Source of the DNA: Halieaceae bacterium
GTDB lineage: Bacteria > Pseudomonadota > Gammaproteobacteria > Pseudomonadales > Halieaceae
NCBI GenBank assembly: GCA_036350855.1
Contig: JAZBNW010000366.1
Location: 1 to 54,732 of the forward strand
Length of the DNA: 54,732 nt
Direction of reading: 5' to 3'
Position numbers and translations under genes: made by a program. Positions 24,809 to 46,179 of the stretch are shown piece by piece; the first letter of the stretch is position 1; every line of letters begins with the position of its first letter. Under the pieces are notes generated by a model that saw nothing but the letters and a program-made list of their open reading frames with translations, did no database searches and was not told where the DNA came from.

Positions 24809-24825
24809 TGGCATGTTTAGTGCCA
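24809..24825. promoter_or_regulatory. operator-like palindrome, site a: TGGCATGTTTAGTGCCA
   Basis: AT-flanked (ATATT...TTATG). It lies in the divergent region, 92 nt from the minus-strand GST-like start and 82 nt from the plus-strand GST start. An extra half-site, TTATGTCAC, follows at 24826-24834. Confidence 0.55.
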
Positions 24826-24906
24826 TTATGTCACACTTTCCTCCCGGGCAGACTGTCAGCGAGAATAGCGTTGCCACCCCATTCGGACCAGAGAAGGAGA
24901 GACACC

Positions 24907-25590
24907 ATGATCGACCTGTACACAGCGCCCACGCCCAATGGCTACAAGGCGTCCTGCACACTGGAAGAACTGGGCATGGCGTATTCTGTGAAGGTGGTGG
25001 ACATCCGCGCGGGCGACCAGCACAGGCCGGAATTCAGGGCCCTGAACCCCAATGGTCGCATCCCGGTGATCGTCGACCGTGCCAATGACGACTTCGCGGT
25101 ATTCGAGTCGGGCGCCATCATGATCTACCTGGCCGAGCAGGCCGGCGCCCTGCTGCCGACGGACGTCAAGGGGCGCTCCCGGGTAATCCAGTGGCTGATG
25201 TTCCAGATCGGCGGCATCGGGCCGATGATGGGCCAGGCCAACGTTTTTTATCGCTATTTCCCGGAGAAAATCGAAGCCGCCATCAACCGCTACCAGCACG
25301 AGGGCCGCCGGCTGTTCGAGGTGCTGGACACCCGCCTGGGCCAGAGCGAATGGCTGGCGGACGACTACTCCATTGCCGATATCGCCAACTGGTGCTGGGT
25401 GAGAACCTACAAGTGGTCCGGGATCTCCCGGGACGGTCTCGACAACCTCGATCGCTGGCTCAACGTGATGAAGGAGAAACCCGGTCTCCAGCGGGGCGTC
25501 ACCGTGCCCATCGCGATAGACAGCCTTATCGAGGACAAGGAAAAAGCGGAAGAATTCGCCAGGAACGCACGCAGCTCACTGCAGACCTGA
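24907..25590 (+). CDS. glutathione S-transferase, Nu-class (YfcG/YghU-like)
   Basis: I re-set the start to ATG 24907 after a [35 protein letters not shown] ... [11 protein letters not shown] ... [12 protein letters not shown] is typical of Nu-class GSTs. Confidence 0.85.
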
Positions 25591-25636
25591 GCCGGCAGAC
25601 AAGCCATGCCGGGGAGTCCCCGAGGCACCCCCTGGT

Positions 25637-26689
25637 TCAACTCGTCAGGGAGTGGACGAAACCCGCCAGCGCCTCGGCGTAAGCCTGCACTTTTTCCGCG
25701 GGCAAGCCCCAGATGGGTGGCGTCGGGCACATGCTGTCCGCTATCTGCCAGAACGGCTCTACCTTCTCGGCCACCTCGTCCATGGGGCCACAGGCAGCGA
25801 AGGCCTCGACCATCTCGTCGGGCACGTGCTGCTTGAGCGCCTCCACGTCCACTCCCTGCTTGATTTCGTGCTGGCAGGCCCGGGCCTCTTTGGCAAAGCC
25901 GTGAGCATCAAAGAACGAGTCGTAGACACTGATACTGGCATAGAAGGCGACCGTACCGCGAGCATCCTCAACCGCCTGCTTGCGGTCATCGTTTATCGCC
26001 ATCCACGGCCAGACGTTAACCTCCAGCTCGCTGCGCTTGCGACCCGACTTTGCCAGGGCATCATCGATGACCGGACCCATCTCATTGACCGCCCAGCTGG
26101 GGGACCACATGGGATGGCCGATAACGCCATCGGCAATCTCCACCCCGGTTCGCAGCAGTGTCTCCCGCAGCGCCGCCACCCAGATCGGGATCTCGGTGCG
26201 CACCGGCGGGTCAGTGGGTTTCAGCTCCCGGAACGTGGCCTTGAAGTATTCACCCTCATAGGGTTCAAGCCCCTTGTGGGCACCGGCGATAATGTGGCGG
26301 ACCGCGGCGACGGTGTCGCGCAACTGCGCGACGGGTTTGTAATGCGGGCTGCCGAAGATATCGCTGGTCCAGACCGGGGCACTGGAGCCCAGGCCGAGAA
26401 TGAAGCGCCCGCCGCTGATGCGATCCACATCAATGGCGGCCATGGCGGTCTCGAAGGGGCTGCGCGTACCGGCAATCGCGATGCCGGTGGCCACTTTCAG
26501 GCGGGTGGTGGCTGCCGCGGCAACCGCCAGTGGAATAAAGGGCGGGCCGAATACCTGGTAGCTGAAGGCGCCGGTGTAACCCAGATCCTCCATCAGCTTC
26601 GCGGTTTCCATCAACTGCTGGCCTGGCATGACCGGGATGACTCCCCAGTACTCGCGCTTCCCCCCCACTGCATTCTTCTTGTCTGACAT
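25637..26689 (-). CDS. LLM-class (luciferase-like) flavin/F420-dependent oxidoreductase
   Basis: I re-set the start to ATG 26689 after an AGGGAG RBS. TIM-barrel LLM pattern (RLKVATGIAIAGTRSPFETAMAAIDVDRISGGRFILGLGSS). Confidence 0.8.
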   Translation of the reverse strand: MSDKKNAVGGKREYWGVIPVMPGQQLMETAKLMEDLGYTGAFSYQVFGPPFIPLAVAAAATTRLKVATGIAIAGTRSPFETAMAAIDVDRISGGRFILGLGSSAPVWTSDIFGSPHYKPVAQLRDTVAAVRHIIAGAHKGLEPYEGEYFKATFRELKPTDPPVRTEIPIWVAALRETLLRTGVEIADGVIGHPMWSPSWAVNEMGPVIDDALAKSGRKRSELEVNVWPWMAINDDRKQAVEDARGTVAFYASISVYDSFFDAHGFAKEARACQHEIKQGVDVEALKQHVPDEMVEAFAACGPMDEVAEKVEPFWQIADSMCPTPPIWGLPAEKVQAYAEALAGFVHSLTS

Positions 26690-28346: not shown

Positions 28347-28516
28347 CTACTATCCTCCTGGCCTGACGGACGTGCAGGCTGCTGGCCGGATAAAGGGTAA
28401 CTGATTTTGACTTTGCCCTGTATACCCGAAACAGCCGGAGGTGTTGACAGCGTCGTCCTGAGCGGCAGACACTGCATGCTTTGCACAACGCCACTGATTG
28501 AGAAGGGAACCCGGCG

Positions 28517-29080: not shown

Positions 29081-29716
29081 TCAGCCGATGTCGAAGTAGA
29101 GCCGCAGCGTTTCGTGGACCACGTCCATGCTGCTTTTTACCGAGAGCCCCTGGTGCAGGCGCAGCCGGCTCCATGTCTCGAAGGAGGTGACGGCATCGAT
29201 CGCCTCCCTTCTCACCACAGGCAGGTCGGCGATCTCCGGCAGCCAATCGGCGAGGTCCTTGCGCAGGCCGCGCTGGTTCCTGGCGTAGTTTTTCTGCAAC
29301 ACCGGGGAACGCCACATCTGGGCCCGGGTCGACAGCATCAGTGAGGACAGTTTCTCGTAGGCCGTCGCCCTGCGCTCGATGACATGCAGGATACGCTCCT
29401 CGAGGGTACCGGCGCGGTCGCCGCCGGCAAACAGGCCCTCATAGCTCTCCCGCAACTGTGTGTCCATGGTCGCAAACAGGGTTTCCATGTCGGCGAAGTG
29501 CCGGAATACCGTGCGAATGCCGACGCCAGCCCGCTCCGCCACGGTCTGCGCCGTGGGCACCAGAACGCCCTCATTTACCAGCGCCTGCAGGGCATCGATA
29601 ATCTGCTGCCGGCTGCGCTCGGTGCGCAGCAGCCGCCCGTCGGGCTTCTTCGCAGCGCCGGCTTGCCCGCTGCCAGGGCGGCTTTTAACGCTGGCGGGTT
29701 TGTCGGTCTTGTTCAT
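29081..29716 (-). CDS. TetR/AcrR family transcriptional regulator (candidate regulator of the palindrome regulon)
   Basis: 211 aa. HTH region RSRQQIIDALQALVNEGVLVPTAQTVAERAGVGIRTVFRHF. Its start overlaps the stop of the upstream GST-like gene by 4 nt (29713-29716). Confidence 0.85.
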   Translation of the reverse strand: MNKTDKPASVKSRPGSGQAGAAKKPDGRLLRTERSRQQIIDALQALVNEGVLVPTAQTVAERAGVGIRTVFRHFADMETLFATMDTQLRESYEGLFAGGDRAGTLEERILHVIERRATAYEKLSSLMLSTRAQMWRSPVLQKNYARNQRGLRKDLADWLPEIADLPVVRREAIDAVTSFETWSRLRLHQGLSVKSSMDVVHETLRLYFDIG

Positions 29717-30843
29717 TTGCCGCTTGTTCCCCCACTATCCGGCCGGGCTTCCACCAGCTCGAGCTGACCCGGCTTGCGCGCTACCCAGCGGGTAATGTCC
29801 GTATTGAGCGCATCAAACCCGCCTATGGCCTTTAACAGCACATCCGCCGCCGCCCGCTCCTGCGGCGGCAGGGAATGGTAGTGCGCCCAGGGCCGCTGGA
29901 ACATCCACTGGGCGTAGCTGTGGACGACCCGCTCGCCCGAGGCGGACCCGATCCGGAAGGGATGCATGCCCAGGTAACGGGGAATGTCCCCGCCGGGATT
30001 CTGCTCCAGCCAGCTGGCATTGTGGCGAATAACATCCAGTACATCGGGCAGCTGGTCGCGGCACATGGTCTGCAGTATCGGCAGCAGCGTCGCCGGAATC
30101 TCGTCATCCGACAGGAACTCACCGGCAAGGGGCGCCGGATTGTTCATCCGCTCCACCCAGGCGTGGACATTGGGTGCGCGCGCCTGCATCAGGGCTTTTG
30201 GCACCGGGTCGCGGCCGAGGTGGGCATACAGTGGCCCCATCAAGCCGAAGTCGCCAATACCGGGGCGGGAACCCAGCAGGAAGTCAAACTGGCTGAAATG
30301 GCGATCCAGCTGGTCGAGCAGTTCGAGGTAGGTTTCCTCGATCGCCGGTATGGTGTCCGCAGTGATACCCAGCATCGGTACCGAACCGCGAAACATCTTC
30401 GAGGTGCGCTCGCCGATCACCACCTGCTCCTCGTGGGTCGCATCGGGTGCGCTCATTCTGCCGAATTCCGCCATAATGAAATCGTGTTGCTGGTCCAGCA
30501 CACTCCAGCGGTAATGCATGGCGGGAATGACCAGCCACTCGTCACCGTAGAGTTCCAGCATCAAGGCCACCAGTTTCTGCAGGGGCGTGTCGGGGTATAC
30601 GGAAACGGCGGGGTGGGCCGCCTCGAGAAAGTCGATGATGTCGGTGGTATCCTGCACATACAGGCCGTCCGCGGTCGCCAGCACCGGCACGATGGCCGCG
30701 CCGATAGTTGGCAAAATAATCGATTTGTAGATTTCCCCGGTAGCGGTCACCTCCTCCCAGTCGAGCCCCTTGAAGCGCATGTAAGCGCGCGCCTTACCGG
30801 TATAAAGTGAGTGGTCAGCACCGTATAGAATGTAATCTGTCAT
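29713..30843 (-). CDS. long GST-like protein, paralog B
   Basis: 376 aa. GST N-domain-like start (YILYGADHSLYTGKARAYMRFKGLDWEEV). It shares HYRW and LLGSRPGIGDFGLMG blocks with the 23671-24717 protein. Confidence 0.7.
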   Translation of the reverse strand: MTDYILYGADHSLYTGKARAYMRFKGLDWEEVTATGEIYKSIILPTIGAAIVPVLATADGLYVQDTTDIIDFLEAAHPAVSVYPDTPLQKLVALMLELYGDEWLVIPAMHYRWSVLDQQHDFIMAEFGRMSAPDATHEEQVVIGERTSKMFRGSVPMLGITADTIPAIEETYLELLDQLDRHFSQFDFLLGSRPGIGDFGLMGPLYAHLGRDPVPKALMQARAPNVHAWVERMNNPAPLAGEFLSDDEIPATLLPILQTMCRDQLPDVLDVIRHNASWLEQNPGGDIPRYLGMHPFRIGSASGERVVHSYAQWMFQRPWAHYHSLPPQERAAADVLLKAIGGFDALNTDITRWVARKPGQLELVEARPDSGGTSGK

Positions 30844-30924: not shown

Positions 30925-30941
30925 TGTCACTTTGCATGCCA
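30925..30941. promoter_or_regulatory. operator-like palindrome, site c: TGTCACTTTGCATGCCA
   Basis: AT-flanked (CATAT...TAATC). It lies 82 nt from the GST-like/TetR operon start and 182 nt from the acyl-CoA synthetase start. Confidence 0.5.
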
Positions 30942-31122: not shown

Positions 31123-32826
31123 ATGTATAAAGAACTTCAGGAAACCATCGCCGCGATGACCGCCCCGGGCCAGATGTTCAGCATCGCCGAGGTCGAGGTC
31201 GGCGGCCAGCCGGTAAAAGCCTGGGCCATGGCCCCCGGCTCCCTGCGCGACATATGGCTCAGCACCGCCGGCCATGCCGACAAGGACTACCTGGTCTATC
31301 GTGACGAGCGCTGGACCTACGCCCAGGCACACGAGCAGGTCGCCCGCATTGCCAACTGGCTGGTGGCCAACGGTATCGGCCAACAGGACCGCGTCGCCAT
31401 CGCCATGCGCAACTACCCGGAATGGATGCTCTCCTACTGGGCGATCGCCAGCATCGGTGCCGTGTCGGTGGGTGTCAACGCCTGGTGGGTGCCGGAGGAA
31501 TTGAAATACGGCCTGAAAGACTCCGGCACCAAACTGCTTATCTGCGACAGCGAGCGCCTGTCCCGTTTCGATGAAATCCGCGGCGATTTCCCCGACCTGA
31601 AGGTCGCCGCGGTCCGCGTTGACGACGTGCCATCCTGGGCCTCGCCCTGGACCGAGGTGCTGGCAGCAGAGCCTGCCATGCCCGGGGTCAGCATCCACCC
31701 GGACGACGACGCCTGCATTTTCTATACCTCCGGCACTACCGGCGCGCCCAAGGGTGCCCAGCTGACCCATCGCGGTTGTGTCAACAACCTGCTCAGCGTG
31801 ATCTTTGGCACCATGTCCCAGGCAACGGCACAGGCCAGGGCCCAGGGCAAAACCCCGCCCGACCTGCTCGGCGGCAGCCAGACACAGATGGCGTCGATCG
31901 TCGCGACACCGCTGTTTCATGTCACCGCCAACAATTGCCTCGCACAGACCGCGACTATCGCCGGTGGCAAACTGGTACATATGCACAAGTGGGATCCGGG
32001 CGAGGCGCTGCGCATTATCGAGGAGGAGAAAATCACCGTGTTCAGCGGCGTGCCCACCATGAGCAGGGAGATAATCAATCACCCGGACTTCGCCACCCGC
32101 GACACCTCGACCCTGACGTCGCTGAACGGCGGCGGCGCCGCGGTGCAGCCGGACCTGGTTGGCAAGATTGACAAAGGCGGTCGCGGTGCCCAGCCGGGCC
32201 AGGGCTACGGCATGACCGAGGTGTGCGGCATTATCAGCACCTCCACCGGGTTTTTCCTCTCGGACAAACCCAGCAGCGCCGGCATGGTAGTACCGATCTA
32301 CGACGTAAAGTGCATCGACAAGCAGGGCAATACGCTGGCAGTGGGCGAGACCGGCGAGGTCTGTGTCAGGGGCGCACAGGTCATCAAGGGCTATCTCAAC
32401 CGCCCCGAGGCAACCGAGGAAGCCATCGTCGACGGCTGGTTGCATACCGGTGATATCGGTTATATCGACGAGGACAATTTCATCTACCTGGTCGACCGCG
32501 CCAAGGACATGGTGCTGCGCGGCGGGGAAAACGTCTTCTGCTCCGAGGTGGAAACCGCGCTATACAAGCACCCGGACGTGGCTGAGTGTACTGTTTTCTC
32601 GGTGCCCGACGAGCGCCTGGGTGAGGAAGTGGGCGCTGCGATCTTCCCGGCCCAGGGCAAAAGCCCGACGGCCGAGGAGCTTCGCGCCTTCTGTAAAACC
32701 CAGCTGGCCGCCTACAAGGCGCCCCGCTACATCTGGATACTGGACGAGCCCCTGCCGCGCAACGCCAGCGGCAAATTCGTCAAACGCGCCCTGCAGGACA
32801 GCCTGGCGCTGGCGGATGCCGGTTAG
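31123..32826 (+). CDS. acyl-CoA synthetase (AMP-binding, ANL superfamily)
   Basis: I re-set the start to ATG 31123 (MYKELQETIAAM...). AMP-binding motif IFYTSGTTGAPKGAQLTH, plus the GYGMTE, TGDIGYIDEDNFIYLVDRAKD and PRNASGK motifs. Confidence 0.9.
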   Translation: MYKELQETIAAMTAPGQMFSIAEVEVGGQPVKAWAMAPGSLRDIWLSTAGHADKDYLVYRDERWTYAQAHEQVARIANWLVANGIGQQDRVAIAMRNYPEWMLSYWAIASIGAVSVGVNAWWVPEELKYGLKDSGTKLLICDSERLSRFDEIRGDFPDLKVAAVRVDDVPSWASPWTEVLAAEPAMPGVSIHPDDDACIFYTSGTTGAPKGAQLTHRGCVNNLLSVIFGTMSQATAQARAQGKTPPDLLGGSQTQMASIVATPLFHVTANNCLAQTATIAGGKLVHMHKWDPGEALRIIEEEKITVFSGVPTMSREIINHPDFATRDTSTLTSLNGGGAAVQPDLVGKIDKGGRGAQPGQGYGMTEVCGIISTSTGFFLSDKPSSAGMVVPIYDVKCIDKQGNTLAVGETGEVCVRGAQVIKGYLNRPEATEEAIVDGWLHTGDIGYIDEDNFIYLVDRAKDMVLRGGENVFCSEVETALYKHPDVAECTVFSVPDERLGEEVGAAIFPAQGKSPTAEELRAFCKTQLAAYKAPRYIWILDEPLPRNASGKFVKRALQDSLALADAG

Positions 32827-32919
32827 CGATGCCGGGCGCTATCGGGCGGGCGTTACACGAGCAGCGGTATCTATCCGCAAATACCAGCAGCACCAGGCCA
32901 AACACTTGAGGAGAACAAT

Positions 32920-33210
32920 ATGCCCATTGGAGTGATCGCAAAACTTTCGATACAGCCAGGCAAGAACGCGGAGTTCGAGAGCGTCTTTGGCAAGCTGGCA
33001 GCGGAGGTAAACAGCAGGGAAAGCGGCTGCCACTTCTACGCACTGCACCAGTCCCGCATCGACCCGCAGAGTTACGTGGTACTGGAACAGTACAGCGATG
33101 AAGAGGCCCTGGCGCTACATGGCAAAACCGATTACTTTCGCAGCGCGGGCGCCGAGCTGGCGCCCTGTATGGCGGCCGCGCCGGAAATAGAGTACTTCGA
33201 CGCGGTTTAG
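32920..33210 (+). CDS. antibiotic-biosynthesis-monooxygenase (ABM / YgiN-like) domain protein
   Basis: 96 aa with a ferredoxin-like ABM pattern (IAKLSIQPGKNAEFESVF ... VVLEQYSDEEALALHGKTDYF). Confidence 0.75.
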   Translation: MPIGVIAKLSIQPGKNAEFESVFGKLAAEVNSRESGCHFYALHQSRIDPQSYVVLEQYSDEEALALHGKTDYFRSAGAELAPCMAAAPEIEYFDAV

Positions 33211-33216
33211 CCCCAC

Positions 33217-34248: not shown

Positions 34249-34274
34249 TTCTTTCTCCTGTCGTCTGGTTTTGC

Positions 34275-35477: not shown

Positions 35478-35532
35478 AGCGTCACCCTTCCCAATTGACC
35501 TGCCAATTGCCTTGTCTTCCCGCGCGGGGCCA

Positions 35533-36802: not shown

Positions 36803-36941
36803 TATTAGTTTGAATTGGGCCCGGCGACCACATCCGGTCCCTGCGGCCATCAATTTCTGGAGGCCAGCGACAGCGAATTCGCCCTGCGCTGGTTCCTTGT
36901 TGGCTATACTGGGGTACAAGCAGACTTCAGGAAACGCGACT

Positions 36942-38039
36942 ATGACAATGAACAGACGGGAATTCAGCCTGACCGCACTGGCATCGGCAGCTGCCCTTGC
37001 GCTCAATCCGGCCCGGGCAGCGGAGCCCGCGATCAACCGCCGGATCGTGCTGGCGTCGCGGCCCACCGGCAAGCCGACCCCGGAGAATTTTCGCCTGGAA
37101 AGTGCAGCTGTGCCCGAACCGGGGGACGGCGAAGTATTACTGCAGACCCTCTATCTTTCCCTCGACCCCTATATGCGGGGCAGGATGAGTGCGCGCGAGA
37201 GCTACGCCCCCTCCGTCGCACTGGGCGCGGTCATGGTCGGCGGCACGGTCAGCAAGGTGGTCAACTCCCGCAACCCCGGGTTCGCACCCGGTGACCTGGT
37301 GACGGCCTATGCCGGCTGGCAGGACTACGCACTTTCCGATGGCAGTGATCTGATGAAACTGGACCCGCGCATCGCGCGACCGTCCTACGCGCTGGGCGTA
37401 CTCGGCATGCCGGGCCTCACCGCCTATGTGGGACTGCTGGACATAGGCCAGCCCAAACCCGGGGACACGGTGGTACTGGCGGCGGCCACCGGGGCGGTGG
37501 GCTCCGTGGTCGGACAGATCGCCAGGCTCAAGGGCTGCAGGGTGGTGGGTATCGCCGGGGCGGCCGAGAAGTGTCGCTACGCAGTCGAGGAGCTGGGCTA
37601 CGATGCCTGTGTCAGCCACTATGACAAGGACATGGCGCAGCAACTGGCCGCTGCCTGCCCCGACGGCATCGATGTCTACTTCGAGAATGTCGGCGGCAGC
37701 TCGTGGGAAGCCGTGATGCCATTGCTTAACAACTTTGCCCGCGTACCCGTATGCGGACTGATAGCCCACTACAACCAGACGGAACTGCCGCCCGGACCGG
37801 ATCGCATGAGCCAGTTGCAGGCGCTGATATTACAGCGGAGCCTGAAAATGCAGGGGTTTATCGTCGGCAACTACCGCGACCGCATCCCCGACTTCGTCCG
37901 CGACATGAGCGGGTGGCTGGCCGCCGGCAAGGTCAAGTATCGCGAGGACATGGTGGAGGGGCTGGAACGGGCGCCGGAGGCTTTCCTGGGCCTGTTCTCG
38001 GGAGAAAACTTCGGCAAGCTGGTGGTGAAGGTCAATTAG
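36942..38039 (+). CDS. NADP-dependent medium-chain oxidoreductase (CurA/YncB / alkenal-one reductase type) with an apparent Tat signal peptide
   Basis: I re-set the start to ATG 36942. The MDR body begins at NRRIVLASRPTGKPTPENFRLE (compare the E. coli CurA N-terminus). Rossmann motif AAATGAVGSVVGQIA. It is preceded by MTMNRREFSLTALASAAALALNPARA/AE. Confidence 0.85.
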   Translation: MTMNRREFSLTALASAAALALNPARAAEPAINRRIVLASRPTGKPTPENFRLESAAVPEPGDGEVLLQTLYLSLDPYMRGRMSARESYAPSVALGAVMVGGTVSKVVNSRNPGFAPGDLVTAYAGWQDYALSDGSDLMKLDPRIARPSYALGVLGMPGLTAYVGLLDIGQPKPGDTVVLAAATGAVGSVVGQIARLKGCRVVGIAGAAEKCRYAVEELGYDACVSHYDKDMAQQLAAACPDGIDVYFENVGGSSWEAVMPLLNNFARVPVCGLIAHYNQTELPPGPDRMSQLQALILQRSLKMQGFIVGNYRDRIPDFVRDMSGWLAAGKVKYREDMVEGLERAPEAFLGLFSGENFGKLVVKVN

Positions 38040-38086
38040 CAGTGGCGGGTCAAACTGGCCGGCCGTGATCAGCCTGGACTGAGCGT

Positions 38087-39025
38087 GTGACGAGGGCGAT
38101 TTCGCTGGCCGTTACCGCCTGGGCCCCGCGTTCCGGCTGGCGTGCACAGAGCCTGTGCCGCCAGGCGGAGGCGGCCCAGGCCATGGGTTTCCACTCCTTC
38201 TGGTTGCCGGAAAATCACTTCGGCGACCAGCGCTCGATCCCCTCACCACTGACTCTCCTGGCCGCCGTGGCCGCGCGCACGGACACGATCGGCCTCGGCT
38301 CCACCTCCTACCTGCTGCCGATCAGGCACCCGCTGCTGGCGGCCGAGGAAGTGGCGGTGCTCGATCAGCTGTCGAACGGCAGGGTGATCCTGGGCGTGGG
38401 TCGCGGTATCCAAAGCGCCGTGTTCGAGGCGTTCAATATCCCGCCCGGGGACAAGCGCAAACTGTTCCAGGCCAACCTGGCGCTCATGCTCGCCGCCTGG
38501 CGGGGGGAGCCGATAGCGCAGGATGCAGACGGCAAACCGGTATTCCTCGCGCCCCTGCCGGTACAACGCCCCCACCCCCCGATATGGGTTGCCGCGTTCG
38601 GTCCGCTGGCACTGCGGCAGGTGGCGAGCCTGGGCCTGCCTTATCTCGCCTCGCCGATCGAGCCCCTGGACGTGCTCGCACAGAACTACGACAACTACCA
38701 CCGCGCCTTGCACGACGCCGGCCAGCCCCCGGTGAGCACGATCCCGGTGATGCGCACGATCTTTGTCACCGACAGCCAGGGCCTGGCCGCGGACCTGCGC
38801 TCACGACTGCAGGGCGCTGTACCCGCGGCCATGCGAAAAGCCGACGTGGCCGTGGATGACTGGAGCATCATCGGGGATCGCAGCTACGTCAGGGACAAGC
38901 TCAGCGAGTATGTCGAGCGCCTCGGTATAAGCCACCTGATCGCCAGGGGGGGATTGCCGGGAGTGGACGACAGGGCCCAGCTGCAGAGCCATGAGGCCCT
39001 GATCTCCATCGCCTCGAGCCTGTGA
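38087..39025 (+). CDS. LLM-class flavin-dependent oxidoreductase
   Basis: 312 aa with a GTG start, which is uncertain. LLM pattern FHSFWLPENHF ... IGLGSTSYLLPIRHPLLAAEEVAVLDQLSNGRVILGVGRG. Confidence 0.75.
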   Translation: MTRAISLAVTAWAPRSGWRAQSLCRQAEAAQAMGFHSFWLPENHFGDQRSIPSPLTLLAAVAARTDTIGLGSTSYLLPIRHPLLAAEEVAVLDQLSNGRVILGVGRGIQSAVFEAFNIPPGDKRKLFQANLALMLAAWRGEPIAQDADGKPVFLAPLPVQRPHPPIWVAAFGPLALRQVASLGLPYLASPIEPLDVLAQNYDNYHRALHDAGQPPVSTIPVMRTIFVTDSQGLAADLRSRLQGAVPAAMRKADVAVDDWSIIGDRSYVRDKLSEYVERLGISHLIARGGLPGVDDRAQLQSHEALISIASSL

Positions 39026-39118
39026 TTCCATGGCGCAGGCCTTGTCTCCCATAGTGTTTTCATGGCGTTTGGCTACAATAGCGCCCTCTGATTCGACTGC
39101 CCGGAGGCAGATCCAGCG

Positions 39119-40333
39119 ATGACCCACCTGATGAAGTCCCAGAAACTGCACGGCGTACTCTATGATATTCGCGGCCCGGTGCTGGATCACGCCAATCGCC
39201 TGGAGGACGACGGCCACAAAATCCTCAAGCTGAATATCGGCAACCCCGGCGCCTTCGGCTTTGACGCCCCGGACGAGATTTATCGCGACGTCATCCACAA
39301 CCTGCGGGAGGCCCAGGGGTACTGCCACTCGAAGGGGCTGTTTGCGGCGCGCAAGGCGATTATGCAACGCTACCAGGTGGAGGGTGTCCGGGACGTCGAC
39401 GTGGAAGATATCATCCTCGGCAATGGCGTCAGCGAACTGATCGTGATGGCCATGCAGGCCCTGCTGAACACCGGCGACGAAATGCTCATACCCTCTCCGG
39501 ATTATCCCCTGTGGACCGCGGCAGTGTCCCTCAGCGGCGGCAGGCCGGTCCATTACCGTTGCGACGAGGCCAATGACTGGCAACCGGATCTCGACGACAT
39601 CGAGTCCAGGATCACAGCCAATACCCGGGGCATCGTGGTGATCAACCCCAACAATCCCACCGGGGCGGTGTACAGCCGTGAGACGCTGGAAAAAATAGTC
39701 GAGCTCGCCAGGCGTCACGGGCTGGTGATCTACGCCGATGAAATCTATGACCGCATCCTGTACGACGACGCGCAACACACGCCCCTGGCCGCACTGGCAA
39801 GCGACGTGCTTTGCGTTACCTTCAACGGCCTGTCGAAGACCTATCGGATGGCCGGTTTTCGATCCGGCTGGATGATGCTCAGCGGCGCCAAGGAGAGTGC
39901 CGGAAGTTATATCGAGGGGCTGGAGATGCTGGCCTCGATGCGCCTGTGCGCCAATGTGCCGGCCATGCTCGCCGTGCAGACCGCGCTGGGTGGCTACCAG
40001 AGTATCAATGACCTCATTTTACCGGGCGGCAGGTTGAAAGAGCAGCGCGACCTGGCCTACGAACTGATTACCGCCATCCCCGGCGTCAGCTGCGTCAAGC
40101 CGCGGGCGGCAATGTACCTGTTCCCCCGGCTGGACCCGGCCATGTACCCGATCGAGGACGACCAGCAAATGGTGCTCCGGCTTCTCAAGGAAGAGCACAT
40201 GCTGCTGGTCCAGGGCACCGCCTTCAACTGGGCGGACAAGCAGCACTTCAGGATGGTTTTCCTGCCGGACAGGGATCAACTGATAGAGGCGATCGGGCGC
40301 TTCAGCCGTTTCCTGGAGCGGCTGCGGGGCTGA
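39119..40333 (+). CDS. alaA: alanine (glutamate-pyruvate) aminotransferase AlaA
   Basis: 404 aa, near-colinear with E. coli AlaA as I recall it. Shared blocks include YDIRGPVL, LKLNIGNP..FGFDAP, GNGVSELI and SPDYPLWTAAVSLSGG. Also shared are INPNNPTGAVYS, FNGLSKTYR.AGFR and LASMRLCANVPA. Confidence 0.9.
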   Translation: MTHLMKSQKLHGVLYDIRGPVLDHANRLEDDGHKILKLNIGNPGAFGFDAPDEIYRDVIHNLREAQGYCHSKGLFAARKAIMQRYQVEGVRDVDVEDIILGNGVSELIVMAMQALLNTGDEMLIPSPDYPLWTAAVSLSGGRPVHYRCDEANDWQPDLDDIESRITANTRGIVVINPNNPTGAVYSRETLEKIVELARRHGLVIYADEIYDRILYDDAQHTPLAALASDVLCVTFNGLSKTYRMAGFRSGWMMLSGAKESAGSYIEGLEMLASMRLCANVPAMLAVQTALGGYQSINDLILPGGRLKEQRDLAYELITAIPGVSCVKPRAAMYLFPRLDPAMYPIEDDQQMVLRLLKEEHMLLVQGTAFNWADKQHFRMVFLPDRDQLIEAIGRFSRFLERLRG

Positions 40334-40414
40334 TTGGCCGATTTCCCGCCCTGGTGCGGGACACGATAGCGCCTATAATCGAATGAAGTCACTGTAATGC
40401 GAGGGATCAAATCG

Positions 40415-41197
40415 ATGTTGGAACACCTGTTCTCCATGCAAGGCAAGGTCTGTGTCGTTACCGGCGGCTCCCGCGGGCTGGGCGAGTTCATGGCCAAGGG
40501 TTTTCTGCAGGCCGGGGCCAGCCGCGTGTATATTACCGCCCGCAACGCCGAGGACTGCCAGGCAACCGCCGAACACCTGGCGCAGTATGGGGAGTGTATC
40601 GCCCTGCCCGGCAACCTCAGTTCAATGGACGAAATCAAGGCGCTGGCGGCGGAACTGTCGCGGCGCGAGCCGGCCATTCACGTGCTGGTCAACAACGCGG
40701 GCACCGGCTGGGGCGCCGAACTCGACACCTACCCGGAAAAGGGCTGGGACAAGGTCATGGACCTCAACGTAAAGACCCCGTTTTTCCTGACCCAGGCCAT
40801 GCTGCCGCTGCTGCGGGAGGGTGGCAGCGCCGACAGTACCGCCAGCGTGCTCAATATCGGCTCGATCGCGGGTATTATCGGCGACGGTTTCCTGAATTAC
40901 AGCTATGGTCCCAGCAAGGCGGCGATACACCAGTTGACCCGCAACCTGGCAAAGGACCTGGCGGAGGACCATATCAGGGTAAACGCGATTGCACCGGGTC
41001 GCTTCTTCTCCAGATTGACCGAGTACGCCAGCAGGGACAAGGCGGCCTATGACGCCGAAATCGAGATGATACCCCTGCATCGCTGGGGCGAGGAAAACGA
41101 TATCGCCGGGGTCGCCATCATGTTGTGCAGCAACGCCGGCGCGTTTATCACCGGCCAGATCATCCCGGTGGATGGCGGCACCACCCTGGTGTCATAG
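40415..41197 (+). CDS. SDR family oxidoreductase (RhlG/FabG-like)
   Basis: I chose ATG 40415 (MLEHLFSMQGKVCVVTGGSRGLG) with a GAGGGA RBS 9 nt upstream. TGxxxGxG and NNAG motifs and the YxxxK catalytic motif (YGPSKAA) are present. Confidence 0.85.
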   Translation: MLEHLFSMQGKVCVVTGGSRGLGEFMAKGFLQAGASRVYITARNAEDCQATAEHLAQYGECIALPGNLSSMDEIKALAAELSRREPAIHVLVNNAGTGWGAELDTYPEKGWDKVMDLNVKTPFFLTQAMLPLLREGGSADSTASVLNIGSIAGIIGDGFLNYSYGPSKAAIHQLTRNLAKDLAEDHIRVNAIAPGRFFSRLTEYASRDKAAYDAEIEMIPLHRWGEENDIAGVAIMLCSNAGAFITGQIIPVDGGTTLVS

Positions 41198-41214
41198 CCG
41201 CCAGGGCAGGGTGT

Positions 41215-41529
41215 TCAGCCGCGCGGAGGCATGCCATGAACCATGGTCAGAAACGCCAGTTTTGTGCCGGCCCTGCGATGTTCTGACAGGGCCTGGTACT
41301 CGGGATCTGCATACCAGTCCTGCGCTGACCGTTCAGAGGGAAAACGGAAGATAATCATCCTGCCCTCGCGGGGCGCATCACCTTCCAGGGTAAGCGGCTT
41401 GTCGTCATAGGTGATGAATTCACCACCATACTTTTTCAGTATGCCAAAAAAGCCTTTTTCGTAATTGCGATACGCGTCGGCGTCGGTGACAGCCAGATTC
41501 ACTACCATATACACGGGTACATCAGACAC
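41215..41529 (-). CDS. DUF1330 domain protein
   Basis: I chose GTG 41529, with an AGGAGA RBS 7 nt upstream. VYMVVNLAVTDADAYRNYEKGF ... MIIFRFPSERSAQDWYADPEYQAL is the typical DUF1330 dimeric alpha-beta-barrel pattern. Confidence 0.75.
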   Translation of the reverse strand: MSDVPVYMVVNLAVTDADAYRNYEKGFFGILKKYGGEFITYDDKPLTLEGDAPREGRMIIFRFPSERSAQDWYADPEYQALSEHRRAGTKLAFLTMVHGMPPRG

Positions 41530-41554
41530 TATTTTCTCCTTGCGCAGGGTTGAG

Positions 41555-42439
41555 TCAGTCCAGGGTATCCATCCAGCGGGAAACAGCCTGCCCGATTTCC
41601 CGGGGGGAGTCCTCCTGGACAAAGTGATTGCCTTTCACCGTGACCTCGGTCTGGTTGGGCCAGCTACGGCAAAACTCCCGGGGCCTGCCGGTCAAAATCG
41701 AACCGGGATCGGCGTTGATAAACAGCTTGGGCAATTGTTCATTGCGCGCAAGCCACTGCCCGTAGCCATCAACCAGTTCCACCATGTCGGCGGGCTCGCC
41801 GTCGATGGGTATCTGGCGCGGCCAGTTGAGTGTGGGCTGGCGGTCGTCGGGCGTTGCAAAGGGCGCCAGGTAGTGCCGCATTTCCTCCTCGCCCAGCTTG
41901 CGGATAATCGAGCTGGGTAGCACCGCCTCGACGAACATATTGCGTTGCAACACCAGTTCCTCCCCCTTGGGCGACCTGAAACCCTGGAAGATGCCGCGGG
42001 CCGCCTCGGGCCAGTCCTCCCAGGTGACCGGGCAGACGATGCCTTCCATATAGGCGATACCGCGCACCGCGTCCGGGTGTTGCTGCGCCCAGTAAAAACC
42101 CAGGGCGCTGCCCCAGTCGTGGACGACCAGGGTGACATTGCGGTCGGCGCCAATGGCAGCCAGCAGGCCGTCGAGGTAGTGATAGGCGGTAAGAAAGCTG
42201 TAGCGCCCGGGGCCGTCGCTGGCAGGCAGTTTTTCCGAATCACCCTGGCCGATCAGGTCCGGGGCGATCACCCGGCCCCGGCCCTCCAGTTCGGGTATCA
42301 CGTTGCGCCACAGGTAGGAGGACGTGGGGTTACCGTGCAGCAACACAATCGGCTCTCCCGCGCCCGCCTCGACATAGGCGATCTTTTTTCCGTCCACATC
42401 CTGGTACTGTTTTTCGTAGGGCATTTTCGCAGAAATCAT
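41555..42439 (-). CDS. haloalkane dehalogenase, HLD-II (DhaA/LinB-like)
   Basis: 294 aa with strong colinearity to DhaA. Shared blocks are LLHGNPTSSYLWRNVIP (halide-binding Asn) and VVHDWGSALGFYWA (nucleophile Asp plus Trp). MEGIV (Glu) and GNHFVQEDSP (His) are also shared. Confidence 0.85.
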   Translation of the reverse strand: MISAKMPYEKQYQDVDGKKIAYVEAGAGEPIVLLHGNPTSSYLWRNVIPELEGRGRVIAPDLIGQGDSEKLPASDGPGRYSFLTAYHYLDGLLAAIGADRNVTLVVHDWGSALGFYWAQQHPDAVRGIAYMEGIVCPVTWEDWPEAARGIFQGFRSPKGEELVLQRNMFVEAVLPSSIIRKLGEEEMRHYLAPFATPDDRQPTLNWPRQIPIDGEPADMVELVDGYGQWLARNEQLPKLFINADPGSILTGRPREFCRSWPNQTEVTVKGNHFVQEDSPREIGQAVSRWMDTLD

Positions 42440-42465
42440 ATGTTCTCCTCCCGATGGGGTATGGG

Positions 42466-43212
42466 TTAAATCTGGTCTACGATCGTTTTGCCGTTGCGGA
42501 AATACACGAAGGGCCCGGGCTCTTCCGGCTCGTGCCCGCGCTCGAGCCGCCGCTCGACCTCGGCCAGCACCATTCGGGTGATGCTGGGCAGTGCCAGTTC
42601 CCGGGCATCCGCCAGTGACACCCAGTGCAGGCGCAGCAACTCGCCGGAACCCTGGGGCGCCTCATGCACGTCACCCTGGATGAGATCGGCATCCGCCATG
42701 AAGAAACGCGCGTCGTAACGCCGGTTGCGATAGGGTGGCGTGATGGCCCGGGCCACCAGGTGCAGGCTGTCCAGCCGCGGATTGACGTCATACTGCAGGA
42801 AGTCGCGCCAGTGGGGCGAGCGGGTTTTCAGGGTTGGGGTATGGGGTTCGCCCAGCACCAGCCCGGTCTCCTCGTAAGTCTCGCGGATCGCCGCCATCGC
42901 CAGGGCTCTCGCACGGGTTTCGCTGCAGCTGCGGGTCAGCCGCGCCATCACCGCGGGGTGCAGGTCGTGGGGAGGCTGCAGCCGGTGGTCACCGGCATCC
43001 ACCTTGCCGCCGGGGAACACAAATTTGTTGGGCATGAACCTGTGCCCGGCAGCGCGCTGCCCCATCAGTAACCGGGGCCGCCTGCCGTCCCTGCGCACAA
43101 TAATCAGGCTTGCCGCGTCCCGGGGCCTGACCGCCCTGCCACCGGTGCGGTACTCGCTACCCGCTATATACTTCGGATCGTAGACTGGCTCAGCTGTCAT
43201 TAGTCCCGGCAC
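42466..43212 (-). CDS. NUDIX hydrolase family protein
   Basis: 248 aa. Nudix-box second half AAIRETYEETGLVLG lies after PGGKVDAGD, with an insertion between the two. The GTG start is 5 nt after the sulfatase stop. An alternative ATG sits at 43200. Confidence 0.7.
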   Translation of the reverse strand: MPGLMTAEPVYDPKYIAGSEYRTGGRAVRPRDAASLIIVRRDGRRPRLLMGQRAAGHRFMPNKFVFPGGKVDAGDHRLQPPHDLHPAVMARLTRSCSETRARALAMAAIRETYEETGLVLGEPHTPTLKTRSPHWRDFLQYDVNPRLDSLHLVARAITPPYRNRRYDARFFMADADLIQGDVHEAPQGSGELLRLHWVSLADARELALPSITRMVLAEVERRLERGHEPEEPGPFVYFRNGKTIVDQI

Positions 43213-43217
43213 CTGTG

Positions 43218-44894
43218 TCAGTTCGGCCAGTAAATATACTCATCGCCCTCTGCATAGGGCACCCCACCGGGCTTATCGATGAGTTGCGGACTCTGGATCA
43301 CGCTGGGCCACAGGGGCTTCGCCTGCCGGGCATTGTGTTCCGCCAGCAGTGCCTCCAGGGCCGCTACCTTCCCGGGCAATTGCGCTGCCAGGTTGGTCTG
43401 TTCCGTCGGGTCATCGGCGAGCTTGAACAGCCACTTCTTCTGGCCGCTGCCGACAGGCATGTCGGGCTGGTCGGACCGGATCAGCTTCCAGCCGTCATCG
43501 AGTACGCTCTGGTGGTAGCCCTCGCGCCAGAACAGGGTCCGGTGGGGGACACCAGTTGCCTCGCCGCGCACAAAGGGCAGCAGGTCGACGCCATCCAGCT
43601 TCCGGTCCGTCGGTACCGGTGCGGCCGCGGCGGCGGCGAAGGTCTGGAACAGGTCGAAGTGGTGAACGGGGTCGGACACCACCGAACCGGGCTCGATACG
43701 CTTTGGCCATTTCGCCATGAAGGGCACATGGATGCCGCCCTCGAAGTGGTTGAGCTTCCAGCCGCGATAGGGCTTGTTGATATCCGGCAGGCCGATATAG
43801 CCGGCGCCGCCGTTGTCGCTGGTAAATACGATCAGTGTATTGTCGCTGAGGCCGTTGTCCTCCAGCGCCTGGACAATGCGACCGACGCTGCGGTCCAGTG
43901 CGCGGATCATGCCCGCGTAGACCCGCAGGGCGTGGTTCTCGATATGCGGAAAAGCGTCGTAGTCTTCCCGGGTCGCCTGCAGCGGGTTGTGAATCCCCCA
44001 GTGGGCCAGGTACAGGAAGAAGGGGCGGTTGCGGTTGGCCTCTATCACCTTTATCGCTTCATCGGTGTAGTAGTCCGTCAGATAGCCGTCCGGCTCGAAG
44101 CGCTCGCCGCTGTTGAACTGGGCCGCATAGCGGGCCGTGGCCCAGACCATACGGTCGATACCCTCGTTTTCCTGCTTGGCATTGACCACGCCGGGATCAT
44201 TCTCCGGCAGGTAGAGGGTGCCCGCCAGGTTCAGGCTGTCGTCAAAGCCCTGGTCCTCCGGACGCATGCCTTCCAGCGAGCCAAGATGCCACTTGCCGAT
44301 ATGGGCGGTGTAATAGCCCCGGGGCTTCAACACCTCGGCAATGGTAATCTCCGACCCCGGCATGCCCAGCTCCTGGAATGGCGGCAGGGTCTTCGCAGTC
44401 GCGTGGTCGATAAACATCGGCAGCGGTGGCGGATCCAGGTCGCTCATCCACTGGAAGATCGTCGTGCCCACATTCATGAAGGGGGTAAATTCAAAGCCAA
44501 ACCGGGTCGAGTAGCGCCCGGTCATCAGGGATGCCCGGGACGGCGCACACACGGCGTTGGCGGCGTAGCCATCCTCGAACAGCACTCCCTGCCGGGCTAT
44601 GGCGTCGATATGGGGTGTCATGACGCTGCCATCCGCGGCCCCGCCGTTGTACAGGGAGATGTCGTTGAAGCCCATGTCATCGGCCAGGATGAAGACGATA
44701 TTGGGGGGACGCCGGTCCGGGGGCTGGCTGGCGGTGGCCGGACCCGCGGGCCATTCCACCGGGATGTTGGGCCCGATGGGTTTAAGCACCGCACTCACCA
44801 CGGGTATCCCCCAGACCAGCAGGTTGACCCTGTTCTGCCAGCCGATATAGGCGCCAACACCCAGCACAAGTATTACGACAATAAATTTTTTCAT
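43218..44894 (-). CDS. Cys-type (formylglycine) sulfatase with N-terminal membrane anchor/signal
   Basis: I re-set the start to ATG 44894 (MKKFIVVILVLGVGAYIGW). Sulfatase signature NIVFILADDMGFND ... CAPSRASLMTGR (C-x-P-x-R). Confidence 0.85.
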   Translation of the reverse strand: MKKFIVVILVLGVGAYIGWQNRVNLLVWGIPVVSAVLKPIGPNIPVEWPAGPATASQPPDRRPPNIVFILADDMGFNDISLYNGGAADGSVMTPHIDAIARQGVLFEDGYAANAVCAPSRASLMTGRYSTRFGFEFTPFMNVGTTIFQWMSDLDPPPLPMFIDHATAKTLPPFQELGMPGSEITIAEVLKPRGYYTAHIGKWHLGSLEGMRPEDQGFDDSLNLAGTLYLPENDPGVVNAKQENEGIDRMVWATARYAAQFNSGERFEPDGYLTDYYTDEAIKVIEANRNRPFFLYLAHWGIHNPLQATREDYDAFPHIENHALRVYAGMIRALDRSVGRIVQALEDNGLSDNTLIVFTSDNGGAGYIGLPDINKPYRGWKLNHFEGGIHVPFMAKWPKRIEPGSVVSDPVHHFDLFQTFAAAAAAPVPTDRKLDGVDLLPFVRGEATGVPHRTLFWREGYHQSVLDDGWKLIRSDQPDMPVGSGQKKWLFKLADDPTEQTNLAAQLPGKVAALEALLAEHNARQAKPLWPSVIQSPQLIDKPGGVPYAEGDEYIYWPN

Positions 44895-44954
44895 GCTCGC
44901 CTCAGCAGTCCTCGAACGCGGCATACGACACGACTACGGCCGGGGGATCGACAC

Positions 44955-46040
44955 TCACAGCAGCGATACCATCAGGCCGCGGTCGGGCGACACCCTGTTG
45001 TCCAGCAACTCGTTCCACGCCGACGCCAGGGCCTCGGGATCACGTATCCACTCCACCTGCAACGCTTCCCCGGCTGCTTTTGCGACCTCCGCACTGGCCA
45101 TCATCGCTTTCATCATCGCCACCCCCGGGCCCCACTCGGCGTCACGTTTGGCTATCTGCGCCGGTGCGAAAAAGAAGGTGGGTTTCGCTCCAGGCAGGGA
45201 GCCGGTGTCGCCGCGCTGCTCCCAGTGCGTCAGGCCCACCATGGCGCTTTCCACCATGTTTTCGCCCAGCAGCTTGTGGAGCGTGGTGGTCAGGCCGGCA
45301 TCCCCCGACATATCCACGTAAGCCGCCGGCAGCGCGGCGTCGATACTGGCCTCCTGGCCATAGACCACGACCTCGTCGCAACAACCCAGCCGCTCGACGA
45401 AGGCGACATTACCGGCCGAGGTGAGACCGACAATACGCTGCGTGACCTGCGGGTCCCGGTGGAGCATCCGGGCCAGGCCGAAACCGGTCTTGGAGGACAC
45501 CGACCCTATCAGCACCTGCTTTGCGCCGAAGAAGTCATTGTCCACAAGGTAGTCGTAGATCAACCAGGAGGTGGCGAACAGGGGAAACAGCAGACAGCGC
45601 TCCACTTCCATGGCCTGCAGGAAATCCGGTTCTGCCCGGGTGCGTCGGTAACCGTTATACAGCGCCGGCAGGGCCGCCCGGTGTCCGGCGACATCGATAA
45701 ACTGGTCCTCGCGAATCTTGCCGGGACGCAATACCGCGTGACTCGCCATGGGGAAGAAGCCCCAGAGCCGCTCACCCACCGGCACCTCGGCACACCGGGA
45801 TGCGACCACGTTGGCGCAACCCCACACCGGCACCTTGCCCCAGTTACCCCCTGCCGGGTAGTAACCCCAGTAGCCGATCATGTCGCCCGCGACAGCGTAA
45901 CTGACATTGTTCGAGGTCAGGCCGAAGCGGTCGATGGCGACCAGCACCTCACCCTCGTCCGGTGTCGGCACCTCGGTGCTGACGATCCGGGTACTTCTGT
46001 AGTCGCTGCGGTCTACCCACAGTTCAGTAGACTGGGTCAT
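44955..46040 (-). CDS. DUF2855-type protein (MDR/GroES-like N-terminus, function unknown)
   Basis: 361 aa. The N-terminal EGEVLVAIDRFGLTSNNVSYAVAGDMIGYWGYYP and the size match my recollection of DUF2855. The family name is from memory and unverified. Confidence 0.55.
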   Translation of the reverse strand: MTQSTELWVDRSDYRSTRIVSTEVPTPDEGEVLVAIDRFGLTSNNVSYAVAGDMIGYWGYYPAGGNWGKVPVWGCANVVASRCAEVPVGERLWGFFPMASHAVLRPGKIREDQFIDVAGHRAALPALYNGYRRTRAEPDFLQAMEVERCLLFPLFATSWLIYDYLVDNDFFGAKQVLIGSVSSKTGFGLARMLHRDPQVTQRIVGLTSAGNVAFVERLGCCDEVVVYGQEASIDAALPAAYVDMSGDAGLTTTLHKLLGENMVESAMVGLTHWEQRGDTGSLPGAKPTFFFAPAQIAKRDAEWGPGVAMMKAMMASAEVAKAAGEALQVEWIRDPEALASAWNELLDNRVSPDRGLMVSLL

Positions 46041-46162
46041 ATCTTTGCTCCTGCGTCGGGTGGCAAGCGCCCGGCGCTTTCAGTGAATCCCTGCCTGTGC
46101 CGATCTCCTGCGCTCGCTGCGGGGGCAGGCGGGCTGGAAATACTACCACCCCCGCCTGATAA

Positions 46163-46179
46163 TGGCACTTTATATGTCA
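46163..46179. promoter_or_regulatory. operator-like palindrome, site d: TGGCACTTTATATGTCA
   Basis: AT-flanked (GATAA...CTACA). It lies 123 nt from the DUF2855 operon start and 187 nt from the ACAD start. A possible -10 (TACAAT, 46181-46186) abuts it. Confidence 0.5.

Follow-up and report, generated by a model that had tools for sequence, protein, structure and literature searches.

A conserved palindrome in four divergent promoter regions of a Halieaceae bacterium marks a catabolic regulon that is probably controlled by a TetR-family repressor

Members of the Halieaceae (OM60/NOR5 group) are abundant coastal heterotrophs, and to our knowledge gene regulation in this family is essentially unstudied. 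A contig of 54,732 nucleotides from one Halieaceae bacterium (JAZBNW010000366.1 in assembly GCA_036350855.1, positions 1 to 54,732; referred to here as the window) contained four copies of a 17-bp palindrome, each located between divergently transcribed genes. The question that this locus raises is whether the four palindromes are operators of a single regulon and, if so, which protein reads them. We found that the motif is real, conserved, specific to the 5' regions of genes, and linked to a family of TetR-type regulators that is represented in the window by the gene at 29081-29716. The explanation that we favor, and hold with good confidence, is that the palindromes are operators of one conserved regulon, most likely with this TetR protein as the repressor. 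The putative operators, their scores in a position weight matrix (PWM) that is described below, and the candidate regulator were as follows.

24805..24829, core 24809-24825 (TGGCATGTTTAGTGCCA): operator a, between the leftward gene for a glutathione S-transferase (GST)-like protein of 348 aa and a rightward GST gene; PWM score, 28.6 bits
30921..30945, core 30925-30941 (TGTCACTTTGCATGCCA): operator c, between the putative operon of a 376-aa GST-like protein and TetR and the putative acyl-CoA synthetase-ABM operon; PWM score, 22.1 bits
36782..36806, core 36786-36802 (TGGCATGTTTAATGCCA): operator b, between a putative operon of two acyl-CoA dehydrogenases (ACADs) and an NMO and the putative operon of a CurA-like reductase and a luciferase-like monooxygenase (LLM); PWM score, 24.6 bits
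46159..46183, core 46163-46179 (TGGCACTTTATATGTCA): operator d, between the putative DUF2855-sulfatase-NUDIX-hydrolase-DUF1330 operon and the putative ACAD-enoyl-CoA hydratase-thiolase-aldo-keto reductase operon; PWM score, 26.5 bits
29081..29716, minus strand: TetR-family regulator and candidate binder (Pfam TetR_N, PF00440)

A preliminary description of the window had reported the positions and sequences of the four 17-mers, and both were correct on re-reading. Its distances of 82 to 187 nt to the flanking start codons also agreed with our measurements (92 and 82 nt for site a, 82 and 182 nt for site c, 144 and 140 nt for site b, and 123 and 187 nt for site d), and all four sites did lie in AT-rich patches (flanks atat/ataa...ttat/taat) of DNA that was 63% GC. 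These AT-rich flanks are part of the motif. The loose pattern TGNCA-N7-TGNCA matched the window seven times compared to 1.16 expected matches, and none of 100 shuffles reached seven; the three matches outside the palindromes (21736, 36153, and 37610) fell within coding open reading frames. The stricter pattern TGGCAT-N5-ATGCCA with two mismatches allowed, which was weak evidence when taken alone, gave seven matches compared to 3.1 expected. A 25-bp PWM was then applied to the window, which had been excluded from training; the PWM was trained on 80 loci of other genomes only. The fifth-best position in the window was a coding position that scored 8.5 bits, compared to 22.1 to 28.6 bits for the four sites, and composition-preserving local shuffles yielded 0.075 matches of at least 10 bits per window. 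None of the other divergent regions, which had been listed previously as motif-free, contained a PWM match.

The 80 comparison loci were up to 20 kb in length, with one genome per species, and almost all of them came from Halieaceae (Haliea, Halioglobus, Congregibacter, Parahaliea, and others). The strict pattern recurred in these loci with identical AT flanks. The iterated, symmetrised PWM that was built from them produced bimodal scores over their 1.47 Mb of related DNA; specifically, 219 positions scored at least 16 bits and only 256 positions scored at least 6 bits. The refined consensus was ATAATG[G/A]CA-N7-TG[C/T]CATTAT, which spans about 25 bp, and the position-wise motif was A-T-A-A-T-G-[G 55%/A 40%]-C-A-[T/C]-N5-[A/G]-T-G-[C/T]-C-A-T-T-A-T. 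Among the PWM sites, C4/A5 and T13/G14 were nearly invariant and A never occurred at position 6, and the information in the motif ended about 6 nt outside the core on each side. The half-site TGGCA that had been proposed earlier did recur as a palindromic half-site, but its second G was not strict (TG[G/A]CA), and the proposed 17-bp unit was retained as the core of a longer unit that included the AT flanks. Arm positions 3 and 15 varied independently of each other (chi-square P = 0.67). Such independent half-sites fit two protein monomers and not a hairpin.

The placement of the motif was strongly biased. In the comparison DNA, 220 of 230 PWM matches were intergenic even though about 84% of the DNA was called coding, which is the distribution that the operator proposal in the preliminary description had called for. 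Of 210 sites that could be classified, 141 were in divergent gaps, 61 were in tandem gaps, and 8 were in convergent gaps, and the background numbers of gaps in the same DNA were 229, 412, and 149, respectively.

Phylogenetic footprinting, which had been suggested as a further check, showed that syntenic relatives have sites a, b, and c at the orthologous intergenic positions, with the half-sites kept and the spacers varying. The closest syntenic relatives among the comparison loci (designated L001 to L080) were L001, L047, L002, L004, L008, L009, and L012. A site a ortholog was found between the GST gene and the GST-like/NMO genes in L001, L047, L002, L004, L009, and L012, and the order GST-like, NMO, FadB, Baeyer-Villiger monooxygenase (BVMO), and pyruvate phosphate dikinase (PPDK) was kept downstream of the orthologous site in L001 to L009. 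Orthologs of site c were found between the acyl-CoA synthetase and GST-like genes in L001 (8438), L004 (7434), and L008 (7297). For site b, the ortholog was located between the CurA-like reductase and ACAD genes, and in an alignment of L001, L047, L004, and L008, the sequence ATATGGCAT-N5-TGYCAATA was invariant in surrounding DNA that had diverged. The spacer of 5 to 7 nt was different in every genome, while the half-sites and flanks were unchanged. In the case of site d, homologs of the DUF2855 and ACAD genes adjoined sites in L055 and L049. The regulon was not limited to the window and is conserved in marine Gammaproteobacteria.

Two of the sites had additional conserved sequences beside them. 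An additional TGTCA half-site was located 3 nt outside the core of site a (24829-24833), and this third half-site was conserved in the site a family as TGCCAttaTGTCA (equivalent to tgacataaTGGCA; window 24826-24838), with copies at L001 15985, L002 5122, L004 17190, L009/L010 12543, L012 12499, and L047 17219. It could be a -35-like GTGACA element of the leftward promoter or an extra protein contact. On the ACAD side of operator b, at a distance of 25 to 65 nt, we observed the conserved block GCTTGAAGTATTGGTTTTTCGGTAACACAATGAGCCGCC (window 36722-36760, minus strand; also L001, L047, and L004). The block is longer than a promoter requires and may comprise a σ70 promoter (TTGAAG-17-CACAAT) plus another site or a 5' untranslated region element. 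A shorter conserved sequence, CAGTATAGCCAACA, was found near the CurA start (window 36899-36912).

We then considered the protein that might read the motif. The window TetR passed only the generic TetR_N model of Pfam (25.7 bits compared to a cut-off of 24), its AlphaFold2 model was all-helical (10 helices, pLDDT of 81), and every significant Foldseek match in the Protein Data Bank (PDB) was a TetR-family protein, with TM scores of up to 0.65 and identities of up to 21%. All three analyses agreed on a TetR-type helix-turn-helix (HTH) and an all-helical two-domain fold. A sequence search of the PDB gave matches to the HTH only (E values of 1e-4 or higher), and no NCBIfam model scored above its cut-off, the best being KstR (21.6 bits compared to a cut-off of 280). 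The 892 homologs in the protein database were mainly unnamed metagenome sequences, and the few that were named came from Gammaproteobacteria or Halioglobus. A profile search returned 167 clusters (50% identity) at E values of 1e-30 or lower with full-length matches, which indicated a distinct TetR subfamily; the cluster members that were looked up had only generic TetR/AcrR names.

The earlier nomination of this TetR as the candidate binder was supported by the position of the motif. In 56 of 76 homologs, a site ended 62 to 197 nt upstream of the codon for the conserved N-terminal residue D26 (Asp26), compared to about 1.7 expected from the overall density of sites. In seven further homologs, the site was 1.07 to 1.62 kb upstream and headed the upstream gene, which was a GST-like gene in L001, as in the window. 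A 4-nt overlap joins the end of the GST-like gene to the start of the window TetR gene, which indicates that transcription of TetR begins in the promoter region around site c. An inverted-repeat operator in the regulator's own or divergent promoter was thus found in both groups of homologs and, via the GST-like-TetR operon, in the window. Among the annotated site-adjacent clusters we found no other regulator family, with 6 of the 30 largest clusters having no Pfam match or no scan.

The recognition-helix region GVGIRTVFRHF (in the HTH segment PTAQ.VAERAGVGIRTVFRHF) was invariant in 13 homologs with identities down to 60%, and the association between helix and motif extended to more distant proteins. 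A metagenome contig (L109) encoded a 35%-identity homolog that retained VAERAGVGLRTVFRHF and contained three sites beside two divergent GST genes and a hydrolase-TetR operon. The homolog of Glaciecola petra, a member of the Alteromonadales with 40% GC, was 43% identical and retained IRTVFRHF, and its locus (L201; JAVRHX010000007.1, 68575-81156) contained sites of 26.2, 20.8, 19.8, and 14.6 bits. These sites were upstream of an acyl-CoA synthetase/TetR pair (with the 26.2-bit site between the two genes), a TonB-dependent receptor gene, and a GST-like gene. The Glaciecola and L109 loci indicated that the operator and the target families go with this TetR subfamily in two orders. As judged from these sequences, the core of the regulon predates the Halieaceae, and the TetR subfamily is one of marine Gammaproteobacteria, with members in the Halieaceae, elsewhere in the Cellvibrionales, and in at least one genome of the Alteromonadales. 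In the Glaciecola locus, we also noted that TetR was divergent from an operon of acyl-CoA synthetase, electron transfer flavoprotein (ETF), and ETF:quinone oxidoreductase (ETF-QO) and was flanked by a TonB receptor, two GST-like proteins, DJ-1, and a sulfatase. A more distant homolog (P0255, profile E value of about 1e-32) was found in an unrelated polysaccharide/kinase context.

Paralogs of the TetR subfamily, two or more per genome, were observed in L004/L076 and L015/L034 (each pair on one contig) and in L053/L057 (one assembly but separate contigs). These paralogs were 55 to 76% identical to the window TetR, and the same motif was upstream of all but those in L015, in which the nearest site was just beyond the TetR paralog gene, and L053, in which none was found. 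Cross-regulation or heterodimers are possible among paralogs with a common motif. The window itself encoded three other regulators: an AraC protein (8447-9559), a TetR(C_1)-type protein (12010-12813), and a LysR protein (52674-53576). The second TetR was rejected as the binder because it was of the TetR(C_1) type and had no motif nearby.

Most characterised TetR-family proteins are repressors, and the geometry of the promoters in the comparison loci suggested that the same is true here. In TetR paralogs with a short N terminus, the core ended about 32 to 40 nt from the start codon. The promoters of 17 orthologous TetR genes share a -35-like TTGCAA (TTGTAC in L017) located 5 nt upstream of the core, so that the operator occupies the spacer and the -10 region. 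Double operators were found in 14 loci, all of them upstream of one orthologous group of TonB receptors, with the nearer site starting about 30 nt from the start codon and a center-to-center spacing of 25 bp in 13 cases and 26 bp in one (L033 16168/16193, L036 8772/8797, L044, L048, L052, L057, L060, L062, L064, L065, L072, L073, L075, and L076). At site d in the window, a σ70-like TGGAAA-17-GATAAT ended at the first core base, with its -10-like GATAAT abutting the core; this was the single match, and a weak one, in a consensus promoter scan of the four sites. Because of the short distances between core and start codon, the TTGCAA element, the double operators near TonB receptor starts, and the GATAAT at site d, we prefer repression and regard it as probable. 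The consensus of the left flank reads TATAAT; when the AT flanks were considered as -10 boxes of face-to-face promoters, no fixed -35 element was found in the symmetrised profile to 45 nt on either side. The TetR-paralog promoters themselves were near-identical in about 17 loci (L019 to L042, L067, and L071), at a position about 100 nt upstream of the gene, and read cTTGCAAacaaa-TGRCAYATATGSTGTCA-ttaa, with a conserved CGCAAG 11 to 12 nt later. The gene divergent from the TetR paralog encoded a 226-aa enoyl-CoA hydratase.

Several observations weighed against the idea that this TetR protein represses the flanking operons from the four operators. In the window, the operators are 82 to 187 nt from the start codons, the consensus σ70 scan found no good promoter overlapping site a, b, or c, and the conserved TTGAAG-17-CACAAT block at about 40 nt from site b places the operator near -72 of an ACAD promoter, which is more typical of an activator. 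These same observations favor the alternative that TetR binds but activates, or acts dually, at some promoters, since the distances leave space for promoters downstream of the operators. At the TetR-paralog and TonB receptor promoters, in contrast, an operator about 30 to 40 nt from the start codon with TTGCAA beside it has the geometry of a repressor, and we consider activation or dual action improbable. Other observations bear on the identity of the binding protein. The 80 loci were picked because they encode a TetR homolog, so the co-occurrence test rests on positional preference and the sample is not unbiased. A motif-first scan of metagenomes with the exact consensus returned 120 stretches (L081 to L200) with a TetR homolog in only four, but it was swamped by unrelated low-GC DNA and is of no use as an unbiased control; the informative L109 locus was among these stretches. 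Furthermore, 13 of the 76 homologs had no site within 1.7 kb upstream, site c was apparently lost in L003, and several genomes hold at least two paralogs with the same motif, which makes the occupant of a given site ambiguous. A genuine operator might be bound by a different, unlinked transcription factor, with TetR as a frequent member of the regulon; the link between TetR and motif is a co-localisation of sequences in loci that were selected for TetR. The fixed short distance at which the motif precedes most TetR genes (56/76) argues against such a factor, as do the persistence of the motif with the 43%- and 35%-identity homologs that retain the recognition helix and the lack of any other regulator family among the annotated site-adjacent clusters. 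A dyad core of 17 bp also fits TetR dimers, for which this size is typical. We give an unlinked factor only a small chance, and these comparisons make it very likely that the TetR family of the window binds the motif.

The remaining alternatives do without a dimeric repressor altogether. The spacing of TGGCA-N7-TGC is exactly that of σ54 promoters (-24 GG and -12 GC), sites a and b fit this pattern on both strands, and a palindromic σ54 promoter could fire in both directions. The exact consensus ATAATGGCA-N7-TGCCATTAT also turned up in the unrelated low-GC metagenomic DNA of L081 to L200, where 23 occurrences shared a single conserved sequence (ATAATGGCACTTAATTTGCCATTAT, on either strand) that reads as a σ54 -24/-12 promoter (TGGCAC-N5-TTGC). 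Only 64 of 212 conserved sites (30%) kept both the GG and the GC, however, and sites c and d each broke one element on each strand. T was never found at position 12, whereas σ54 promoters favor TTGC; the motif is symmetric, and σ54 would have no need of its conserved CCA and AT flanks; and no enhancer-binding protein was found among the window genes that were scanned with Pfam. On the strength of the symmetry, the 64 compatible sites, and the missing T, we rejected σ54 promoters as an explanation that has hardly any probability left. Structural elements, such as repetitive extragenic palindromic (REP)-like repeats, RNA or DNA hairpins, or terminators, fared equally poorly. A terminator scan did flag site b, where a T-rich tail follows a stem of 6 bp. 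Of the 210 classified sites, however, 141 were in divergent gaps and only 8 in convergent ones; sequence is conserved in the arms, which are mismatched in sites c and d; and the one variable arm position showed no covariation (P = 0.67). Their location and the absent covariation ruled them out for practical purposes, and we regard the motif as almost certainly a real conserved cis-regulatory site.

The genes flanking the four putative operators in the window are listed below. We infer the operon extents, like direct binding, repression, and a ligand, from sequence.

14948..24717, minus strand: leftward operon(s) of operator a, with a GST-like protein (348 aa), NMO, FadB-like protein, BVMO/flavin-containing monooxygenase, PEP-utilising dikinase-like protein, acyltransferase, and epimerase (Pfam; extent beyond 16592 uncertain)
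24907..25590, plus strand: GST (YfcG/Nu-class-like), rightward of operator a (Pfam, NCBIfam)
29713..30843, minus strand: GST-like protein (376 aa), whose gene heads the putative TetR operon (Pfam)
31123..33210, plus strand: acyl-CoA synthetase and ABM monooxygenase, rightward of operator c (Pfam)
33277..36642, minus strand: two ACADs and NMO, leftward of operator b (Pfam; synteny with the site conserved)
36942..41197, plus strand: CurA-like NADPH enone reductase and LLM, rightward of operator b (Pfam, NCBIfam; an aminotransferase and a short-chain dehydrogenase/reductase further on are possible members only)
41215..46040, minus strand: DUF2855 protein, sulfatase, NUDIX protein, alpha/beta hydrolase, and DUF1330 protein, leftward of operator d (Pfam)
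46366..50771, plus strand: ACAD, enoyl-CoA hydratase, thiolase, and aldo-keto reductase, rightward of operator d (Pfam)

Pfam agreed with the gene list in the preliminary description, including the acyltransferase at 15972-16535, except that the protein called a haloalkane dehalogenase was confirmed only as an alpha/beta hydrolase. Between operators a and c, the segment 25637-28972 encoded an LLM, a DcaP-type porin, and an F420H2-quinone-reductase-like protein, and it had its own divergent region (28347-28516) without a site. The F420H2-quinone-reductase-like gene still adjoined TetR in most close relatives (L001, L003, L004, L007, L008, and L047). The TonB receptor gene of the window (5843-8170) had no site.

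The gene families adjacent to sites in the comparison set were also counted. The numbers below are cluster sizes over the 80 loci and count members from the window where these exist.

TetR itself: 41 loci
GST-like proteins of 350 to 376 aa, the most frequent after TetR: 37 in 30 loci
TonB-dependent receptors: 21
metallo-beta-lactamase (MBL)-fold proteins: 20
NMO-type flavoenzymes: 18
small enoyl-CoA hydratase whose gene diverges from that of the TetR paralog: 18
alpha/beta hydrolases: 13
tail-specific protease: 12
GSTs: 9, counting the one in the window
PhyH dioxygenases: 8
acyl-CoA synthetases: 7, counting the one in the window
sulfatases: 7 proteins in 6 loci
CurA-like enone reductases: 5, counting the one in the window
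DJ-1: 5
WS/DGAT, ACADs, and FadB: a few each

This gene content suggests that the regulon serves hydrophobic, possibly electrophilic or sulfated lipid-like substrates that would be taken up and oxidised with heavy use of glutathione chemistry.

Under the repressor explanation, TetR 29081-29716 would bind the operator as a dimer, with one monomer per half-site, and the occupied operator would repress both divergent operons. The regulator would also control its own synthesis via the GST-like-TetR operon at site c. A small ligand in the C-terminal domain would release TetR from the operator; the likeliest kind of ligand would be a hydrophobic or electrophilic catabolite, such as a lipid-derived acyl-CoA, and acyl-CoA as the effector is hinted at only by the beta-oxidation content of the regulon. 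The controlled genes would function in the uptake and breakdown of hydrophobic substrates. Predicted targets are the GST-like proteins, GSTs, NMO-type flavoenzymes, acyl-CoA synthetase, ACADs, hydratases, thiolase, and FadB, as well as BVMO, LLMs, the enone reductase, sulfatase, and hydrolases and, in other genomes, TonB-dependent receptors.

How does this system compare to known ones? KstR2 has a 14-bp palindrome, AnCAAGnnCTTGnT, at three sites and a 15-gene regulon (PMC3068626). Like KstR2 and KstR, the lipid/cholesterol repressors of actinomycetes, the window system has a TetR-type regulator with a short inverted-repeat operator and predicted autoregulation; operators in several divergent intergenic regions of catabolic operons clustered near the regulator gene; and targets that include acyl-CoA synthetases, ACADs, hydratases, and thiolases. 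Unlike them, it belongs to a different phylum, its operator has the 17-bp core TGRCA-N7-TGYCA with AT flanks and not TnnAACnnGTTnnA or AnCAAGnnCTTGnT, and regulons of the window type are rich in GSTs, TonB receptors, and sulfatases. The score against the KstR model (NF033703) was far below the cut-off, as noted above, and identity to solved KstR structures was 17 to 20%, which places the window TetR outside that family.

Among proteobacterial regulators, the TetR-family proteins PsrA and FadP have more than 10 beta-oxidation genes per genome as predicted or demonstrated targets (PMC5343134). The regulon described here resembles theirs in having acyl-CoA synthetase, ACAD, FadB, and thiolase among its targets, with ETF/ETF-QO in the Glaciecola locus, and differs from theirs in a core of targets that includes GST-like proteins, TonB receptors, and MBL-fold proteins. 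The PsrA box, G/CAAAC-N2-4-GTTTG/C, is unrelated to TGRCA-N7-TGYCA. The window TetR did not match the NCBIfam model of Bacillus FadR, and the Foldseek similarity to FadR_Bs and DesT (TM scores of 0.6 to 0.65, 17 to 20% identity) was generic TetR similarity. Orthology to PsrA, FadP, FadR, or DesT was thus not indicated by any NCBIfam cut-off, a comparison that did not extend to the PsrA sequence itself. The likeness to the σ54 consensus (TGGCAC-N5-TTGCW), with its identical TGGCA/TGC spacing, is superficial. Taken together, the sequence comparisons place the architecture closest to KstR/KstR2 and the proteobacterial role closest to PsrA/FadP, and the system appears to be a member of neither group. 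Literature searches for the motif strings, for TetR with TGGCA/TGCCA, and for Halieaceae regulons returned no paper that describes the operator or a TetR regulon of Halieaceae. The TetR subfamily, its operator of about 25 bp, and the conserved catabolic regulon in marine Gammaproteobacteria are previously undescribed.

A broader idea, which we offer as speculation and think is rather unlikely to hold in full, is that, in marine Gammaproteobacteria from both the Cellvibrionales and the Alteromonadales, the TetR subfamily acts as a master switch for a glutathione-dependent pathway that imports, via TonB receptors, and degrades lipid-derived electrophiles. The substrates may then be algal oxylipins, polyunsaturated aldehydes, or sulfated or isoprenoid lipids, and the GST-like proteins, enone reductase, DJ-1, aldo-keto reductase, sulfatase, and PhyH may be joined with beta-oxidation. 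Several paralogs per genome may read the same operator, and control may be graded or cooperative through the strictly phased 25-bp double operators.

Palindromic operators in divergent promoters that are read by a TetR repressor are of a textbook kind, and the value of the finding lies in the new regulon and its ecology and not in the mechanism. With a defined operator, a candidate regulator, and conserved targets, a large catabolic regulon can be delimited in any genome of the group. The regulon gives a physiological context to genes whose roles are unknown, such as those for the GST-like proteins of 350 to 376 aa and DUF2855 (and DUF1330, only via its inferred operon membership), and it guides the hunt for the inducing substrate.

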